DNA from: an uncultured Candidatus Saccharibacteria bacterium
GTDB taxonomy: Bacteria; Patescibacteriota; Minisyncoccia; Phycocordibacterales; JACOZG01
Length of the DNA stretch: 64,000 bases
Reading direction: 5' to 3'
NCBI GenBank assembly: GCA_964651115.1
Contig: CAZYXJ010000002.1
Coordinates: forward strand, 48,338-112,337
The notes under the pieces were generated by a model that saw nothing but the letters and a program-made list of their open reading frames with translations, made no database searches and was not told the origin of the DNA. Position numbers and translations under genes: made by a program. Shown here piece after piece: positions 1,904 through 57,518 of this stretch (positions are counted from its first letter, which is position 1; each line of letters opens with the position of its first letter).

Positions 1904-4237
1904 ATGCCTAAAGTTGCCAAACGCTCACCTAAGATCGAAAAGAAGAAGCCCGTTTACGTGGTAAAAAAGGTGCGCAAGCGCGACGGCTCCGTAGTCTCGT
2001 TTGATGAGGGGCGGATTGCTTTGGCTGTGGGCAAGGCCATGAAGGCGACGGGCGAGGGTGGGGAGAAGGAGGCTTTGGCGGTGGCCGCCTCAGTGACGCG
2101 CGACCTCAATAAGGGTGCTCGGCAAGCCGAGGGCAAATTTGTCCCGACGGTTGAGGGGGTGCAAGACATTGTTGAGGCCCAGTTGATTCTCCATGGTTTT
2201 GTTAAGACGTCTAAGGCTTATATTTTGTATCGCCAGCGTCGGGCAGAAGTGCGCCAAGAGAAGGGCGAAGTGCCAAAGGAGGTTAAAGAATTGGCCGCGG
2301 AGAGCAAAAAATATTTCCGCAATCAGTTGTCGGAGTTCGTCTACTACACCACTTATTCCAAATGGATCCCCGACAAGAATCGTCGCGAGACTTGGGTGGA
2401 GACGATTGATCGTTACGTCGATTTTATGCGCGAGAATTTGGGCGACAAGTTGACGACTAAGGAATATGCCGAAGTTCGAGAGTATATGTTGTCGATGAAG
2501 GCGATGGGCTCAATGCGTTTGCTCTGGGGAGCGGGCAAGGCCGCTCGAGCGACCAACGTTTGTGCTTATAATTGTTCGTTTATCGCGCCCAGTCAGTGGC
2601 AAGATTTCGCGGAGATTATGTATGTGTTGATGTGCGGGACGGGCTGTGGTTACTCGGTTGAGAGTCAGACTGTCGAGATGTTACCGGTAATCCAAAAACA
2701 GCGCGGTGAAAAAGTTTTGCATCACAAAATTGCCGATAGCAAAGAGGGTTGGGCCGACGCCTTCTCTTTGGGTCTTCGGACCTGGGCCGAAGGTCGTGAC
2801 ATCATCTTTGATTATTCGTTAATTCGACCACAAGGGGCTCGCTTATCGACGATGGGTGGCCGCGCTTCTGGCCCCGCGCCCCTTCGTGCGCTTTTGGAGT
2901 TTAGTCGCGAACGGATGCTTAAGCGCCAAGGCCGTCGCCTGACTACCGTAGACGTTCATGACATTGTTTGTAAGACCGGGGAGGTGGTGGTGATGGGTGG
3001 CGTCCGGCGAAGCGCGTTAATCTCCCTCTCCGATTTAGATGATGAGTTAATGCGCACCGCCAAAAACGGTCAGTTCTGGATGACTAATCCTCAGCGGAGC
3101 ATGGCCAATAACTCAGCCGTTTATAATCAGAAGCCAACCTTGGATGTTTTCTTGGACGAATGGGTTAACTTAATGAAGGGTCAGTCTGGCGAGCGAGGCA
3201 TCTTTAATCGTGGCGGCTTAATTAATCAATTGCCGGCTCGACGCTGGCCAGTTTTTAAGCCCGATTCCGATACCTCGGGGACTAATCCTTGTGGTGAAAT
3301 CGTTCTCAAGTCTAAGCAGTTTTGTAACCTGTCCGAAGTTGTCGCGCGCGCCGACGACACTTACGAGACCCTGGCCGACAAGGTTCGGATCGCGACGATC
3401 TTGGGCACCTACCAGGCCACTTTGACTAATTTCCCCTATCTCTCTAAGGAGTGGAAGAAAAATTGCGATGAGGAGGCACTCTTAGGTGTGTCGATTACTG
3501 GTCAGTTCGATAGCCGAGTCGTACGCAATCCCAACACCCTACGCAAGCTCAAGGAGGTGGCGATCGAGACTAATCGTAAGTACGCCACTCGCTTTGGCAT
3601 TAACCAGTCAACTTGTATTACGACGGTTAAACCATCGGGTAACGGTTCGCAACTCTTCGATTCTTCTTCGGGAATGCATCCGCGTCATGCCCCCTTCTAC
3701 ATCCGGCGGGTTCGCATCGAGAGCCACAATCCACTCTTTATGATGTTGCGCGACATGGGTGTACCTCATCATCCGGAAGTTGGTCAGACTGCCGAGTCAG
3801 CCACCACTTATGTGCTCGAGTTTCCGATCAAGGCGCCCCGCGGTTCGATTTTTAAGAACGATTTGTCGGCCATTCAGCAGCTTGAGCACTGGCGAATGCT
3901 GAAAGAGAATTATACCGAGCACAATCCTTCCACGACGGTGTCGATTGGCGAGGAGGAATGGTTGCAAGTGGCAAACTGGGTCTACGAAAATTGGGACATC
4001 GTTGGTGGGCTATCCTTTTTACCTCGCAGTGATCACGTTTATCGTCTAGCGCCTTACGAGGAGGTTACCGAAGAACGCTACAACGAGATGGTTAAAAATT
4101 TCCCCAACATTGATTTCTCCAAAATTGTGCTTTATGAGTACGACGATCAGACGAAGGGTGCTAAGGAGCTGGCCTGTGTCTCGGGTACGTGCGAAGTAGA
4201 TATTCCTAGCCCGAGTGAGGAGGTCAACAAGAAGTAA
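1904..4237 (+). CDS. nrdJ: Class II (adenosylcobalamin-dependent) ribonucleotide reductase with N-terminal ATP-cone
   Basis: The N-terminus carries an ATP-cone (VVKKVRKRDGSVVSFDEGRI...). The catalytic region has the NPCGEI motif and the 777 aa length is typical of monomeric class II RNR. Confidence 0.85.
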   Translation: MPKVAKRSPKIEKKKPVYVVKKVRKRDGSVVSFDEGRIALAVGKAMKATGEGGEKEALAVAASVTRDLNKGARQAEGKFVPTVEGVQDIVEAQLILHGFVKTSKAYILYRQRRAEVRQEKGEVPKEVKELAAESKKYFRNQLSEFVYYTTYSKWIPDKNRRETWVETIDRYVDFMRENLGDKLTTKEYAEVREYMLSMKAMGSMRLLWGAGKAARATNVCAYNCSFIAPSQWQDFAEIMYVLMCGTGCGYSVESQTVEMLPVIQKQRGEKVLHHKIADSKEGWADAFSLGLRTWAEGRDIIFDYSLIRPQGARLSTMGGRASGPAPLRALLEFSRERMLKRQGRRLTTVDVHDIVCKTGEVVVMGGVRRSALISLSDLDDELMRTAKNGQFWMTNPQRSMANNSAVYNQKPTLDVFLDEWVNLMKGQSGERGIFNRGGLINQLPARRWPVFKPDSDTSGTNPCGEIVLKSKQFCNLSEVVARADDTYETLADKVRIATILGTYQATLTNFPYLSKEWKKNCDEEALLGVSITGQFDSRVVRNPNTLRKLKEVAIETNRKYATRFGINQSTCITTVKPSGNGSQLFDSSSGMHPRHAPFYIRRVRIESHNPLFMMLRDMGVPHHPEVGQTAESATTYVLEFPIKAPRGSIFKNDLSAIQQLEHWRMLKENYTEHNPSTTVSIGEEEWLQVANWVYENWDIVGGLSFLPRSDHVYRLAPYEEVTEERYNEMVKNFPNIDFSKIVLYEYDDQTKGAKELACVSGTCEVDIPSPSEEVNKK

Positions 4238-4238
4238 C

Positions 4239-4266
4239 TTGCCTTATTGTTTGGTTATTGTATAAT
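4239..4266 (+). promoter_or_regulatory. Sigma70-like promoter (TTGCCT-N16-TATAAT) upstream of the RNase P RNA
   Basis: A -35-like TTGCCT at 4239-4244 and a perfect TATAAT at 4261-4266 sit ~7 nt before the predicted 5' end of the RNA. Confidence 0.45.
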
Positions 4267-10475: not shown

Positions 10476-10850
10476 ATGCGCGAGTTTCAAGGCAAACGCC
10501 GGCTAAAGCAATTTTTTTATTCTCGGGCAACCGTGGCCTTATTGATTTTGGCCGTTTTGCTCTTAGGGAAAGCGGCCGCCGGTGTTTGGTGGCGGTCGCG
10601 GGGTGTGGCTGAGGAACGTCAGGCAGTTGATCAGGAGTTGGCGGAGGCGGTATCGCGCCGTCAGGAACTGACAGCGTCGATTGCTCGCTTGGAAACGGCT
10701 CGGGGTGTCGAGGCGGAGTTGCGATCGAAGTTTTCGGTGGCACGGCCAGGCGAGCGAGTGATTTCGGTGATCTCGTCTGGGTCAGCCGAACCGGTGGCGC
10801 CACAAGATCGGGGCTGGTGGGAGTGGGTAAGGAATTTTTTGCGGGATTAG
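10476..10850 (+). CDS. Septum formation initiator-like protein (FtsB/DivIC family, putative)
   Basis: A single N-terminal TM helix is followed by a coiled-coil (QELAEAVSRRQELTASIARLETARGVEAELRSKF), an architecture typical of FtsB/FtsL. The last 10 nt overlap tRNA-Gly. Confidence 0.4.
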   Translation: MREFQGKRRLKQFFYSRATVALLILAVLLLGKAAAGVWWRSRGVAEERQAVDQELAEAVSRRQELTASIARLETARGVEAELRSKFSVARPGERVISVISSGSAEPVAPQDRGWWEWVRNFLRD

Positions 10851-16509: not shown

Positions 16510-17064
16510 TTACATCGACTGGATAACCTCCAGGAGTGGTCCGCGGCAATTGGCTGAGCCGTCAAAGATTCCCGTCATTAACGTTTGCGATGATTGCTGG
16601 AAGCTGGCGGAATTATTAATGACGCAGGTGAGCTCCTTGTTTTCCCAATCGGGGTTAGGGTTTTTGGTATATTTAAAGCTGATTTGGCAGCCACCACTGG
16701 CGGGTCCGATAATTTTGTACTCGACGGCCGCGATGCCTTCGGCGTCCACGTTAGTTGTGGCCGGCTGGCAAGCAGCAAATTTCTGCTCGAAGCAGTTTGC
16801 TCCCGAGCAGTTATTGGTGGTGGCAAGGTCGGTCGTGACCGAAACGTTAACGGTGCCAACTGGCGACGTGGCGCTGGTGGTGGCAGTGACGGTGGTTGTC
16901 GTGGGGGTGACAGCGGCTTCGGTCTCAAGTTGGGTCTCGGGCGCTTCTTCGACGGTGATGCCGGCGTTATTGACGCCGTACCAATAATAACCGCCGCCAG
17001 CGACGGCCAAAGCCACCACTATTACTAACACGATGCCAATAAATCCCGAATGGTAATTTTTCAT
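16510..17064 (-). CDS. Membrane-anchored secreted protein with Thr-rich linker and Cys-containing C-terminal domain (hypothetical)
   Basis: An N-terminal TM helix (FIGIVLVIVVALAVAG) is followed by a low-complexity TTTTVTATTSAT linker and a C-terminal domain with about 5 Cys. Confidence 0.45.
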   Translation of the reverse strand: MKNYHSGFIGIVLVIVVALAVAGGGYYWYGVNNAGITVEEAPETQLETEAAVTPTTTTVTATTSATSPVGTVNVSVTTDLATTNNCSGANCFEQKFAACQPATTNVDAEGIAAVEYKIIGPASGGCQISFKYTKNPNPDWENKELTCVINNSASFQQSSQTLMTGIFDGSANCRGPLLEVIQSM

Positions 17065-17091
17065 CAGATTAAAATTAAAATTATAAAAAGT

Positions 17092-17164
17092 GGGCGATAC
17101 AGGACTCGAACCTGTGACCTTTTCTACGTCAAAGAAACGCTCTAGCCAACTGAGCTAATCGCCC
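17092..17164 (-). tRNA. tRNA-Val (anticodon GAC)
   Basis: The reverse complement folds with acceptor GGGCGAT/ATCGCCC, anticodon loop TTGACGT and T-arm ACAGGTTCGAGTCCTGT. Confidence 0.85.
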
Positions 17165-17179
17165 ATTGCCGCGGGGGCG

Positions 17180-17268
17180 GGCGGAGGCGAGAGGATTTGA
17201 ACCTCTGAGGGGCTTTCGCCCCTGCCGCGTTTCGAATGCGGTGCCTTCAACCACTCAGCCACGCCTCC
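17180..17268 (-). tRNA. tRNA-Ser (anticodon CGA), long variable arm
   Basis: The reverse complement reads GGAGGCGTGGCTGAGTGGTTGAAGGCA... with anticodon loop TTCGAAA. The long extra arm (GGCAGGGGCGAAAGCCCCTC) and the T-arm GAGGTTCAAATCCTC fit a serine tRNA. Confidence 0.8.
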
Positions 17269-17433
17269 AGGGTTACGGCTGTAATCCTATCATCTTTTTG
17301 CCAAAAGCTCAAAAGATGCTATATTTTAGGCGCACGAGCCAGATAGCGGCCCTATCGTCCCTGCCTGCGCAGGCAGGTAATGGCTAGTGACATTCCGGAT
17401 AAAACAAAAAGAACTGTTTCGTAAATAATATAA

Positions 17434-17505
17434 GGCCCTATCGTCTAATGGCTAGGACATCACCCTCTCACGGTGGTAATCGGGGTTCGACTCCCCGTAG
17501 GGTCA
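17434..17505 (+). tRNA. tRNA-Glu (anticodon CTC)
   Basis: The 5' end reads GGCCCTATCGTCTAATGGCTAGGACA. The anticodon loop CTCTCAC sits on stem TCACC/GGTGG, and the T-arm is CGGGGTTCGACTCCCCG. Confidence 0.8.
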
Positions 17506-17672
17506 CAGGATCAAAAAAGATGTAGCCGGAGGTTACGTCTTTTTGCATCCCTAGTGATCTCTTGGCCGAGAGAGTTGAAAGTCACAGTCCGCCAGGGGGC
17601 GGACGAGGCGGGGTCGAGCAATCCGCCAGCGGGGCGGATATGCGTGACCACAGATTTTGATATAGTTATAAA

Positions 17673-18329
17673 ATGAAATTATTACTCACTTCAGCCGGAA
17701 TAACCAATAAATCTCTGGCAAATGCCCTGCTTGAGCTTACGGGTAAACCTTTCGAGGAAACCTCAATTGTTTTCATTCCTACCGCTTCAAATGTTGAAAA
17801 AGGTGATAAAGGCTGGCTGATTGATAACTTAGTTCAGCTTCAAAACCTAAACTTTAAACAAATTGAAATTGTCGATATTTCTGCTGTTCCCGACAGGGTT
17901 TGGAGGCCCAAGCTCGAAGAGGCCGATGTGCTTTTCTTTGGAGGCGGTAACACTTATTACTTAATGGAATGGTTGAATAAGTCCGGCCTTACTAAGCTTC
18001 TGCCCGAACTTCTCAAAACCCGTGTGTATTTAGGTGTGAGTGCGGGAAGTATGGTTACAAACCCTGATTTAGCTCTCAAGCTTTCTCAGGTGGTATATGG
18101 AGAAGATTTGGATAAGATGGAAGATGTGGATGGCTTAGGGTATGTAGATTTTTACTTCTTGCCCCATCTTAACTCTGAGTACTTTGTAAATCTTAGGAAA
18201 AAGAATATCGAAGAAGTTTCTACTGGAATGACCGCAAAGATTTATGCGATGGATGATGCTTCTGGTTTGAAAATCGTTGATGGAAACATAGAAATTGTCA
18301 GCGAAGGTGAATATCTAGAATTTAATTAA
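17673..18329 (+). CDS. Peptidase E-like (S51 family dipeptidase)
   Basis: The GGGNTYYL and GVSAGSMV motifs and the overall colinearity match PepE. The local GC (~40%) is well below the window average. Confidence 0.7.
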   Translation: MKLLLTSAGITNKSLANALLELTGKPFEETSIVFIPTASNVEKGDKGWLIDNLVQLQNLNFKQIEIVDISAVPDRVWRPKLEEADVLFFGGGNTYYLMEWLNKSGLTKLLPELLKTRVYLGVSAGSMVTNPDLALKLSQVVYGEDLDKMEDVDGLGYVDFYFLPHLNSEYFVNLRKKNIEEVSTGMTAKIYAMDDASGLKIVDGNIEIVSEGEYLEFN

Positions 18330-18355
18330 TAGACGAGGTCTGGAAAAATTAGAAG

Positions 18356-18745
18356 ATGATAAATCCTTCACGTGGGCTTAAAATAATCATCTTAGCTACT
18401 TTGTTTATTGTGGCTGGATTTCTCTTAAGCGGTAAATCAAGCGCCGTTACTCCTTCCGTGGCCAATGTTGAAGTAAATAATACTCCCCTGATAATAGATC
18501 ACGGGCAATCTATTCCCGATTATTATCCAACGAAGAAAACGGTCAGCGGTAATAATTACTCAAATGCTGAACCTCAGAAATCTGTTATGGGCCCAAGTAC
18601 GAATGGCGATAAAGACTGCAAAGACTTTAGTACTCAGCTTGAGGCGCAGACCTATTTTGACTTTAATGGTGGCAGTCTTGTCAACAACGTGGACAAATTA
18701 GATGGTCCAGATCGCGATGGGAAGGTTTGCGAAAGCTTACCGTAA
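18356..18745 (+). CDS. Excalibur calcium-binding domain protein (secreted)
   Basis: The N-terminal signal/TM is followed by a C-terminal DKDCKDFSTQLEAQTYFDFNGG...DGPDRDGKVCESLP segment, a close match to the Excalibur signature (DxDxDGxxCE). Confidence 0.7.
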   Translation: MINPSRGLKIIILATLFIVAGFLLSGKSSAVTPSVANVEVNNTPLIIDHGQSIPDYYPTKKTVSGNNYSNAEPQKSVMGPSTNGDKDCKDFSTQLEAQTYFDFNGGSLVNNVDKLDGPDRDGKVCESLP

Positions 18746-18761
18746 ATTTTAGAATATTTTC

Positions 18762-18986
18762 ATGATCAAGCCGGGAATCTATCGACACTTTAAGGGCGAG
18801 GATAAGAAATATGAGGTCATTGGCACCGCGATGCACTCCGAGACGGGCGAGTCGCTGGTGGTCTATCGCGCCCTCTATGGTGAGGGTGGTCTCTTTGTTC
18901 GGCCGGAAGCAATGTTTCTGGAGGAGGTGGACAAGCCCGAGTACAATTACCGCGGCCCGCGATTTATTTTTGTGTCAGAAATTTGA
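18762..18986 (+). CDS. DUF1653 domain protein
   Basis: The GIYRHFKG...AMHSETGESLVVYRALYG pattern is typical of DUF1653. Confidence 0.6.
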   Translation: MIKPGIYRHFKGEDKKYEVIGTAMHSETGESLVVYRALYGEGGLFVRPEAMFLEEVDKPEYNYRGPRFIFVSEI

Positions 18987-19136
18987 CAATCTTGTTGGTG
19001 GGTTTATGATTAAGGGTATGCAGTGGTTAAGTTCTATCACGAAGTTCGTCCGCGTCTACCTTGCGCTTATTGCGCCGGGGAGATTGGCGTTGGTACGGAT
19101 CGCGCGCTAGCACTTGATCACTCGTACCTCTCCAAA

Positions 19137-19163
19137 CTCCCCGCATGTCGCGGGGAGTTTTTG
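19137..19163 (+). terminator. Rho-independent terminator
   Basis: The hairpin CTCCCCGCATGTCGCGGGGAG is followed by TTTTT. Confidence 0.5.
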
Positions 19164-19200
19164 GTGGAGGTGGGTGCTAAAATCAGTGGAGGTTGTTGTG

Positions 19201-19398
19201 ATGGAAGAACGGAGTCAGTCGGAGCGTCCTCTTGGTCAAACAACGCCGAGTCAAAAGTTTGTTGCTGGTCGGCTGGGCCGAACCCAGCGCGTGGCGCCGG
19301 CGCGTTCGCGTCGTCCAGAGGAGTATCTGCCGGCCGAAGATCGGCGGCACAGCGCCTGCGGCATCGAGTATGAGCCAGAGGGGGAAGCGAGTTGATTT
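19201..19398 (+). CDS. Small Arg-rich hypothetical protein (65 aa), weak call
   Basis: The ATG is preceded by GGAGG 9 nt upstream, and the ORF lies between two terminators. ORFs are open in several frames here, so it could be non-coding. Confidence 0.2.
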
Positions 19399-19418
19399 GC
19401 CTGCCGCTTTTACCCCTT

Positions 19419-57128: not shown

Positions 57129-57396
57129 TTGCTGTCCTCCTTTCAAAGGGCTTTCGGTTTGATTTCATCTGGACGGGGTGCCCAGATTTCATTTCAAGTT
57201 ATCACAAATTACCTCGGACGTCAAGAGCGACAAAAAATCCGCAATATTGAGGTTTCTAAATTCTTGACTCTTAGGATTAAAAAATTTTCTTCCCCAAAAA
57301 TGCGAAATCGGGAATTCGTTTTTACCCCCAAAATTGAATACAAATTAGTCGCCGAGCGAAGCGAGGCGAACCAAAACTCTTTGACTTTTCCTACGT

Positions 57397-57480
57397 GGTG
57401 CCGAAGGTGGGAATCGAACCCACACTCCTTGCGGAACACGATTTTGAGTCGTGCGCGTCTGCCAATTCCGCCACTTCGGC
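57397..57480 (-). tRNA. tRNA-Leu (anticodon CAA), long variable arm
   Basis: The reverse complement reads GCCGAAGTGGCGGAATTGGCAGACGCGCACGACTCAAAATCGTG..., with anticodon loop CTCAAAA and T-arm GTGGGTTCGATTCCCAC. Confidence 0.75.
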
Positions 57481-57495
57481 TTATAGTCTTTTAAC

Positions 57496-57518
57496 TGCCA
57501 ATTCCGCCACTTCGGCCT
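57496..57518 (-). repeat. Partial duplicate of the tRNA-Leu(CAA) 5' segment (acceptor plus D-arm, 22 nt)
   Basis: TGCCAATTCCGCCACTTCGGC at 57459-57480 is repeated at 57496-57518, 15 nt away. Confidence 0.6.

Follow-up and report, generated by a model that had tools for sequence, protein, structure and literature searches.

Positions 17348–17433 of the stretch of DNA analysed here (64 kb, hereafter the window) are probably an ORF-less remnant or miniature of a GIY-YIG cassette family located on the 5′ side of Patescibacteria tRNA-Glu genes. The full cassette consists, in order, of tRNA-Glu nt 1–12, a GC-rich hairpin, tRNA nt 13 to about 21, a short leader, an ORF and a complete tRNA-Glu. The window was filed as a relic or miniature rather than as a full member because it has no ORF, only a 40-nt spacer. 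This reading draws on directly observed features, namely the architecture, its recurrence in eight genomes, the empty and filled states of the locus, the fold of the nuclease and the covariation of the hairpin.

The split copy of tRNA-Glu in the window occupies positions 17348–17393 of the forward strand. Its part A (GGCCCTATCGTC, 17348–17359) is an exact copy of tRNA nt 1–12, matching 17434–17445 on the same strand, and spans the acceptor 5′ strand, nt 8–9 and the D-stem 5′ strand. Part B (TAATGGCTAG-T-GACAT, 17378–17393, forward strand) corresponds to nt 13–27, that is, to the D-loop and the D-stem 3′ strand, with one extra T at 17388. Between nt 12 and 13 lies the perfect 18-nt palindrome CCTGCCTGCGCAGGCAGG (17360–17377, strand not assigned), composed of CCTGCCTGC and GCAGGCAGG. 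A 40-nt AT-rich spacer (17394–17433, forward strand), which is the site of the 80–86-aa GIY-YIG ORF in relatives, separates the fragment from the intact tRNA-Glu (17434–17506, forward strand), so that the two copies start 86 nt apart. The intact gene has the anticodon CTC and no encoded CCA, and was identified by ARAGORN and by Rfam (58 bits). The initial annotation had given the sequence of the fragment and the perfect palindrome splitting it correctly, while its start for the fragment, 17351, was 3 nt off the true one.

A D-loop C specific to the window (GGCTAG) is common to part B and the intact tRNA-Glu, whose body, compared with those of L003, L004 and L091, is of the type bearing the anticodon TTC in relatives. 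The gapped pattern GGCCCTATCGTC-N{0,30}-TAATGGCTAG was found in exactly two places in the window and in none of 100 shuffles. The palindrome is followed by TAATGGCTA and is single-copy in the 64-kb window (chance expectation 0.02), even when three mismatches are allowed. Other occurrences, which the initial annotation had suggested looking for, exist in L105 (the identical 18-mer) and, in related forms, in other CPR genomes. No further pieces of tRNA-Glu were detected in the window using the gapped 5′ pattern and ARAGORN, and Rfam returned only the tRNA itself at 17250–17700, even at E ≤ 10. A split tRNA, a permuted tRNA and a D-loop intron were considered and ruled out, given that the tRNA lying downstream is itself complete and that the fragment is not followed by a 3′ half.

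The Logan contig L008 from another run (SRR14271375) has the same left junction and the palindrome as far as position 17376 (17 of its 18 bases). A metagenome assembly artefact, such as a hairpin chimera or collapsed strain variants, might be suspected since L008 ends at 17376, inside the palindrome, and Logan contig L009 begins only at 17477, which leaves no second assembly spanning the whole feature. Moreover, a Logan contig of another genome (L107) was an obvious inverted-duplication artefact and was discarded. Nevertheless, the identical GGCCCTATCGTC-CCTGCCTGCGCAGGCAGG-TAA junction is present in L105, an unrelated NCBI MAG, and L105, L108 and others share the junctions across different projects and assemblers. 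Together with L008 and with the exact resumption of the tRNA sequence at nt 13 after the palindrome, this leaves a negligible chance for an artefact. The observation is real and is neither a chance repeat nor a random footprint.

Based on TsaD and the neighbouring genes, the window belongs to Patescibacteria/CPR, its nearest relatives sharing 74% and 63% TsaD identity. The relatives L003–L006 have the same gene order as the window (HSP20, PrsW, ValRS, TsaD, a small protein, tRNA-Val and tRNA-Ser), and the relatives' tRNA-Glu lies on the other strand from this block. Comparison of the orthologous tRNA-Glu loci, also advised by the initial annotation, revealed that the locus is empty in L003–L006 and that the tRNA occupies the place where the window has the fragment. 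In two relatives, tRNA-Glu starts 78 nt (L003) and 68 nt (L004) from tRNA-Ser; in the window, a distance of 78 nt from tRNA-Ser is that of the fragment, not of tRNA-Glu. The ancestral position of the gene is therefore the one now taken by the fragment, and the tRNA-Glu in use in the window has been pushed 86 nt downstream.

The position of the putative promoter was examined by consensus scan. A sigma-70-like element at 17298–17325 (forward strand), with the −35 box TTGCCA (17298–17303) and the TG-extended −10 box TATATT (17320–17325), has a 16-nt spacer and 10 of 12 consensus matches, its function being inferred. It is the sole forward-strand match upstream of tRNA-Glu and adjoins the fragment, not the intact tRNA. 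The same TTGCCAAAAG..TGCTATAGT promoter is found immediately 5′ of the intact tRNA-Glu in L004, where it is clearly conserved, and only the TTGCCAAAAG box is recognisable upstream of tRNA-Glu in L003. Consensus scans gave no convincing match 5′ of the fragment in L105, L106, L108 and L090.

The contig L091 is syntenic with the window over approximately 9 kb, and the neighbouring proteins share 60–73% amino-acid identity. L091 is therefore this very locus as found in a relative, where a full cassette fills the gap. Thus, a single locus exists in a full (L091), an ORF-less (window) and an empty (L003–L006) state, these being states of different species, not of strains. The matches listed in the TsaD-alignment contig scan included no close orthologous loci and had at most 50% identity.

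The construct was found 5′ of an intact tRNA-Glu in seven other Patescibacteria (CPR) genomes, which makes eight with the window. It consists of tRNA-Glu nt 1–12, an 18–20-nt CCTGCCTGC(C)/(G)GCAGGCAGG palindrome and tRNA nt 13 to about 21; within part B, only TAAYGGYTA (nt 13–21) is conserved family-wide. A scan of public metagenome contigs with a pattern of tRNA nt 1–12, 1–31 nt and tRNA nt 13–27 gave two loci. The first, L090, carries GGCCCTATCGTC-CCTGCCTACCGGCAGGTAGG-TAATGGTTAGGACAT, a 41-nt spacer and tRNA-Glu(CTC), with no ORF. The second, L091, carries the perfect 20-mer CCTGCCTGCCGGCAGGCAGG and an 85-aa ORF followed by tRNA-Glu(TTC). Further carriers were sought on contigs of GIY-YIG homologues (L092, L093–L102, L105, L106 and L108–L111), and every tRNA-Glu-linked homologue examined had the same left end; L105 carries the window's own 18-mer.

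The ORF is present in six of the eight carriers (L091, L092, L093, L105, L106 and L108) and absent from the window and L090, where an AT-rich spacer of about 40 nt is found instead. In five of the six, the last six codons and the stop are read from tRNA nt 2–22 (..ALSSNG, ending on the D-loop TAG). The exception is L093, whose ORF has its own stop 2 nt before the tRNA. As for the window, five cassette proteins gave no tblastn match anywhere in it, and local alignment of the spacer with six cassettes was not better than with shuffles (best 38/1000). Since the spacer has no significant similarity to the cassette ORFs, an origin by ORF deletion is not demonstrated, and the form without an ORF could either be ancestral or have arisen independently as a miniature.

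Nucleotides 1–12 of both copies are identical in seven of the eight genomes, L105 alone differing, at nt 6. Furthermore, the fragment follows the lineage changes of the resident tRNA: GGCTCTA in L108, GGCCTCA in L106 and the D-loop C in the window. Neutral decay would not yield a fragment that tracks its resident tRNA, and this tracking points to gene conversion, repeated re-creation or selection for identity as its probable source. A Mur-ligase neighbour is common to three of the cassettes (L093, L106 and L108), which indicates their long vertical inheritance.

A neutral accident, in which local slippage duplicated the tRNA 5′ end, a palindrome was inserted by chance and the pseudogene is now decaying, would agree with the extra T at 17388, the lack of an ORF and the predicted fold of the window copy, which is not unusually stable. 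However, the palindrome occupies the same tRNA position in seven other genomes, in two of them as compensatory variants, and its chance expectation per window is low, as given above. We consider such an accident highly improbable.

The cassette ORF encodes a GIY-YIG domain (Pfam PF01541, E = 4e-15). The proteins, of 80–86 aa, are of the Slx1/UPF0213 type and form a single compact domain, and the nearest sequence in the PDB is that of UPF0213 BH0048. The AlphaFold model (pLDDT 91.7) comprises the elements E2–9, E15–20, H23–31, E44–52, H55–67 and H69–82; the best matching folds are UPF0213 and Slx1, then I-TevI, with UvrC also behind. The invariant residues Y5, Y16, G18, R26, H30 and E62 correspond to the GIY, YIG, Arg, His and Glu positions. 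No extra DNA-binding domain for a long target is present in the 80–86 aa, and a bare domain of this size has no obvious means of recognising a long target.

The family is large, a profile search having retrieved 18,985 representatives of clusters at E ≤ 1e-3; at E ≤ 1e-10 the number was 3,565. The SSNG terminus was found in 10 of the best 150 representatives, and many tails look tRNA-derived, e.g., ..ALSSNG; others, such as GPIV, GAIV, SSSG and SSLV, resemble translated 5′ ends of other tRNAs. No relatives were detected among the viral contigs scanned with the cassette protein profile. In a small, unsupported NJ tree built on 78 residues, the proteins are not grouped by tRNA-Glu locus, which hints at possible exchange between loci.

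The hairpin occurs in a 20-nt palindrome form in L091, L092, L093 and L108, and in an 18-nt form in the window and L105. L090 and L106 carry compensatory variants. The eight genomes contain four sequence variants. In the register CCTGCC-GGCA-GGCAGG, pairing is 100% across all genomes, and double changes are seen in two pairs, one in L090 (G-C to A-U) and the other in L106 (C-G to U-A). The observed values were reached in only 9 of 500 shuffles, and slid registers paired at 17–46%. The register of the full palindrome was tried as well; it gave two mismatches with no compensation, and the shifted register fits better. The signal is modest but real and suggests that the hairpin, as RNA or single-stranded DNA, is under selection.

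According to the predicted folds, RNAs of the fragment plus hairpin in the relatives form extended stems (−20 to −23 kcal/mol, z from −2.3 to −3.0), in which tRNA nt 4–11 are paired with nt 13–21. The window's 18-nt variant, folded in the same way, was not more stable than shuffles (z −0.35), nor was the window leader together with the tRNA (z −0.5). The fold of the complete L091 transcript shows the 3′ end of the tRNA as a possible pairing partner of the pseudo 5′ strand. We propose a clamp function for the hairpin because the stranded 5′ strand could otherwise form this pairing.

These properties could also be expected of a host cis-element, i.e., of a tRNA-Glu leader made up of the fragment and hairpin and selected for pre-tRNA processing, stability or regulation, with the GIY-YIG ORF as a later passenger in some lineages. 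Such a leader would account for the retention of the fragment and hairpin without an ORF in the window and L090, for the compensatory hairpin changes, for the co-variation of the fragment with the resident tRNA, for the lack of any ORF trace in the spacer and for the short ORF-less 5′ duplications at other CPR tRNAs described below. However, tRNA-Glu does well without a fragment or hairpin in L003–L006, as does tRNA-Glu(TTC) at six other CPR loci, the ORF is present in most of the distinct carriers (6/8), and the window variant has no exceptional predicted stability. Also, an ORF of the same layout precedes a tRNA-Val, with unrelated hairpins.

This tRNA-Val ORF, on L104, is 53% identical and ends inside tRNA-Val(TAC). 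On its 5′ side are tRNA-Val nt 1–15, two unrelated GC-rich hairpins and nt 18–25, the hairpins thus being placed at the same D-loop position. A related tRNA-Val ORF with the same layout ties this layout to the ORF and not to tRNA-Glu biology, and we regard a host leader as unlikely. On L010, a more distant ORF precedes tRNA-Val(GAC) and is flanked by 22-nt inverted repeats, as well as by a 6-nt direct repeat of the tRNA start.

Duplicated 5′ ends are not restricted to these genes. The TsaD-alignment contig scan supplied unbiased CPR loci with further such duplications; among them, L012 has a 5′ duplication with a CCTGC..GCAGG hairpin at tRNA-Phe, and L020 has two tandem 5′ copies without a hairpin at tRNA-Val. 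In the window itself, tRNA-Leu(CAA) has a second 5′ duplication, without a hairpin, at 57495–57516. Since hairpin-less duplications exist (window tRNA-Leu and L020), the hairpin is not obligatory, and the duplications at the window tRNA-Leu, L012 and L020 mean that the process is general in this group.

The CCTGCC..GGCAGG palindrome (18–21 nt) also occurs outside tRNA contexts in CPR genomes. L091 contains three copies in 11 kb, i.e., two extra ones; another sequence has two copies nearby, and one of these is interrupted by an extra palindrome. Rfam gave no match at the second L091 palindrome. In L018, one copy lies inside the trmD reading frame. A single copy on L103, a locus with no tRNA, was the only match in the viral contig scan.

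The initial annotation had interpreted the split fragment as a footprint of recombination at the tRNA gene (a target-site duplication and an inserted hairpin) and had noted a low-GC islet starting just downstream of the intact tRNA. The islet is confirmed: GC is 0.47 and 0.43 within 17001–19000 versus approximately 0.55 in the flanks, the region is variable, and the ORFs downstream of tRNA-Glu encode Peptidase_S51, an unknown protein and DUF1653. If the duplication were of the att type, produced by an integrative element or island at tRNA-Glu, the islet would be its cargo. The variability of the tRNA-Glu–murA region among relatives and its low GC in the window would suit such an origin, as would the serine recombinase genes that abut the 3′ side of tRNA-Glu in L092 and L108 and indicate that tRNA-Glu serves for integration in this group. 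However, the repeat comprises the 5′ part of the tRNA, the copies bracket 40 nt and not the islet, there is no integrase among the islet ORFs, and neither the gapped 5′ pattern nor ARAGORN revealed a 3′ tRNA-Glu fragment at the far end of the islet. In addition, the same fragment and palindrome were found with unrelated downstream genes across genomes. A classical integrative-element duplication linked to the islet is unsupported because of the repeated 5′ part and the missing integrase, and we judge it very unlikely. Of the proposed footprint, an insertion-type event duplicating the 5′ end stands, and a random insertion of a hairpin does not, the palindrome being a conserved module at nt 12/13 in seven other genomes. 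The initial annotation was therefore partly supported: it was right on the general class, a mobile-DNA scar at a tRNA gene, and its specific mechanism was not supported.

Returning to the GIY-YIG cassette, we infer its mobility, the target of its nuclease and the role of the hairpin, and suggest the following scheme. The cassette would have entered the tRNA gene region, bringing or generating a second copy of the tRNA 5′ end. The tRNA itself would remain intact, with its former 5′ end stranded on the upstream side. The cassette would be transcribed from the promoter of the tRNA, and in the window this conserved upstream element may drive one transcript containing the fragment, hairpin, spacer and tRNA, from which RNase P would release the tRNA. 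In cassettes whose ORF overlaps the tRNA, maturation of the tRNA and translation of the full-length nuclease would be mutually exclusive for each transcript; because processing would remove the end of the ORF, expression of the nuclease is proposed to be kept low. The hairpin may lock the redundant 5′ fragment in a stable stem-loop, and the fragment could then not compete with the real 5′ strand for the tRNA 3′ acceptor strand. The cassette itself may spread or persist as a homing-type selfish gene for a nuclease; the lineage of the window would have lost the ORF by deletion. It should be noted that a target within the tRNA would be retained in the intact copy, which is at odds with classical homing immunity. 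The tRNA segment present in both copies has too little length and variation for donor and recipient to be distinguished.

A broader possibility, which we put forward tentatively, is that Patescibacteria hold a large undescribed class of minimal (80–90 aa) Slx1-like GIY-YIG selfish cassettes colonising the 5′ ends of tRNA genes. Such cassettes would keep the tRNA alive by duplicating its first 6–27 nt and would borrow its transcription, and with the frame often ending on the D-loop TAG, processing and translation would compete. The hairpin in the stranded D-loop may be an RNA clamp or a structure recognised by the nuclease, and may itself be a tiny mobile palindrome that also lands in intergenic DNA and reading frames. 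The window would then contain two relics, at tRNA-Glu and at tRNA-Leu. In the literature, which was covered in part, we found no published description of this cassette family, of the split fragment or of a fusion between GIY-YIG ORFs and tRNA 5′ ends, and an earlier account may exist.

Stranded tRNA gene fragments are normally read as scars left by integrases at the tRNA 3′ end. Here the scar is at the 5′ end and suggests a different agent, a bare GIY-YIG domain placed between the stranded fragment and the gene. Provided that the family is mobile, bacteria would have in it an RNA-gene counterpart of the "mobile ORFs" of mitochondria, and the widespread stand-alone UPF0213/Slx1-like proteins would gain a concrete biology. 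For the annotation of CPR genomes, it is relevant that called ORFs run into tRNA genes, that leaders hold half tRNAs and that tRNA-Glu loci change their anticodon. In addition, a stop codon overlapping an RNase P substrate may be a simple case of competition between tRNA maturation and translation.

Several known systems resemble parts of the cassette. Small dispersed GC-rich palindromes include the bacterial REP elements, the Rickettsia palindromic elements (RPE) and the yeast mitochondrial GC clusters, and the CCTGCC..GGCAGG palindrome is similar to them in its presence at other CPR sites. The REP and RPE elements are much longer than the 18–21-nt palindrome of the cassette; the latter has one copy in the 64-kb window, and no associated transposase was seen. 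Integrase-derived tRNA fragments normally comprise the 3′ part of the tRNA and lie on both sides of a large element with an integrase gene. Known fragments of tRNA genes have their source in integrating phages and integrative elements, being by-products of such mobile DNA, or in CRISPR spacers (PMC9897764). The cassette shares with the integrase-derived fragments a partial tRNA copy beside an intact tRNA gene; unlike integrase scars, it repeats the 5′ part, its copies are 40–260 nt apart, and it has no integrase.

SegB of phage T4 is a site-specific GIY-YIG homing endonuclease encoded in a tRNA cluster, which cleaves that region in genomes without segB and thereby promotes inheritance of its own region (PMC2330249). 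In both cases a GIY-YIG nuclease gene lies among tRNA genes, and the Seg-type catalytic residues Tyr, Tyr, Arg, His and Glu are present in the cassette proteins, that is, in relatives only, the ORF being absent from the window. Presence or absence of the gene at one site in related genomes, another trait of Seg-type genes, is likewise seen at the cassette locus, though between species. Unlike SegB, the cassette protein is a bare domain with no room for a DNA-binding domain, and it is chromosomal, not phage-borne. The overlap of the ORF with the tRNA 5′ end, the 5′ fragment and the hairpin are features of the cassette; we saw no mention of a 5′ fragment or hairpin, and no report of a gene-end duplication, for SegB (PMC2330249).

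[quoted passage not shown] The cassette protein has the minimal single-domain fold and the catalytic motifs of stand-alone Slx1-like/UPF0213 proteins such as BH0048 (PDB 1zg2). For this family, we found no reported link to tRNA genes, gene-end duplication or a hairpin; PMC1564403 mentions "tRNA" only where it treats a methyltransferase fusion (GIY-YIG/TrmH) and in the reference list. What is known of the stand-alone Slx1-like proteins of prokaryotes is a sequence family only.

The closest analogues of the cassette are the mobile endonuclease ORFs (mORFs) of fungal mitochondria, which insert in atp6, atp9, cox2 and nad3 with a replacement gene end and leave the native end duplicated (PMC3630166). 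As in the mORFs (Allomyces atp6; Glomus atp6, atp9, cox2 and nad3), a free-standing endonuclease ORF is accompanied by a second copy of the gene end and the gene remains functional. The mORF nucleases are of the LAGLIDADG type, or GIY-YIG in atp9, and their ORF can be in phase with the host gene (PMC3630166). In mORFs, the strongly divergent copies, of which the inserted one is foreign, are of the 3′ (C-terminal) end of a protein gene, and the stranded copy is downstream; in the cassette, the copies are of a tRNA 5′ end, identical or nearly so within each genome, and the stranded copy is upstream. Unlike in mORFs, a conserved hairpin interrupts the stranded copy of the cassette, and a bare domain of 80–86 aa makes up the nuclease. 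By this analogy, the cassette is a mirror image of the mORF at the 5′ end of a bacterial tRNA gene.

The palindrome CCTGCC..GGCAGG that splits the tRNA-Glu fragment was also found outside such fragments, in four further sequences. In L091, a syntenic relative carrying the full GIY-YIG cassette, two copies are present (1820-1838 and 4234-4253). One of the two interrupts the sequence ACCTGTCCCGTTA|GA.., which is also found in unsplit form at a distance of 110 nt. The copy in contig L018 (4415-4435) is located in frame within trmD and is flanked by AAGGTCA repeats. Another is present in contig L103 (6644-6663), and the copy in the MAG L105 (1825-1840) forms a terminator-like hairpin directly 3′ of the tRNA. 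Overall, these copies have the appearance of a very small palindromic element that is dispersed.

Besides tRNA-Glu, tRNA-Leu(caa) (57396-57480, minus strand) is the only one of the 14 tRNAs in the window with a 5′ repeat. An exact second copy of GCCGAAGTGGCGGAATTGGCAG (tRNA-Leu nt 1-22) is found at 57516-57495, followed by the 14-nt spacer ttaaaagactataa and then by the tRNA; this upstream stretch (57481-57516, minus strand) contains neither a hairpin nor an ORF. ORF-less 5′ tRNA duplications also occur in two loci from other contigs, L012 and L020, which had been retrieved for an unrelated reason. In L012 (8940-9111), tRNA-Phe nt 1-17 is followed by the hairpin CCTGC-cttt ata-GCAGG, 98 nt upstream of the tRNA. 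In L020 (3205-3359), tRNA-Val nt 1-23 is present as two degenerate copies in tandem.

The Logan assembly of the window's organism is interrupted twice in the tRNA-Glu feature: contig L008 ends at window position 17376, within the palindrome, and contig L009 begins at 17477, within the tRNA. Consequently, the whole feature is spanned by no second assembly. In a different genome, contig L107 is an inverted duplicate and is probably an assembly artefact.

The tRNA-Glu of the window (17434-17506) has the anticodon CTC, and its orthologues in L091 and in the four relatives lacking the fragment (L003-L006) have TTC. The tRNA bodies are nearly identical, sharing the anticodon stem CACCC/GGTGG; they differ by a single change in the D-loop and by a T-stem pair whose bases are swapped. 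In the long ORFs of the window, GAA codons (514) are as common as GAG codons (472), so a tRNA-Glu(UUC) must be encoded elsewhere in the genome.

A low-GC islet (17673-19400, GC 0.43-0.47) lies between tRNA-Glu and murA and includes genes for Peptidase_S51, a 129-aa unknown protein and DUF1653; no integrase was seen in it. In relatives, the same spot is occupied by different genes (an NDK-like gene, NTP_transferase and small unknown proteins). At the edge of this variable islet, a motif downstream of tRNA-Glu is conserved in four genomes: the window (17575-17616), L003 (~3915-3965), L091 (~10639-10690) and L090 (~3715-3765), another genome with an ORF-less fragment and hairpin. It consists of GTGARRGCGSAG, a variable GC-rich or AT-rich hairpin and CGAGSCGGGGTC, with covariation at two pairs (RNAalifold) and no match in Rfam. 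Given its position at the islet border, the motif may represent a small RNA or an attachment site.

In the Saccharibacteria MAG L010, a GIY-YIG ORF with its flanking repeats (1908-2304) is located directly 5′ of tRNA-Val(gac). The ORF has 22-nt inverted repeats on both sides (CCTGACACACTGAATGGCCTTG / CAAGGCCATTCAGTGTGACAGG), and the tail ..GLRQGHSV, encoded by the repeat, is the C-terminal end in a large subfamily of proteins. The ORF is also bracketed by the direct repeat GCGCGG, identical to tRNA-Val nt 1-6. This arrangement resembles terminal inverted repeats together with a target duplication.
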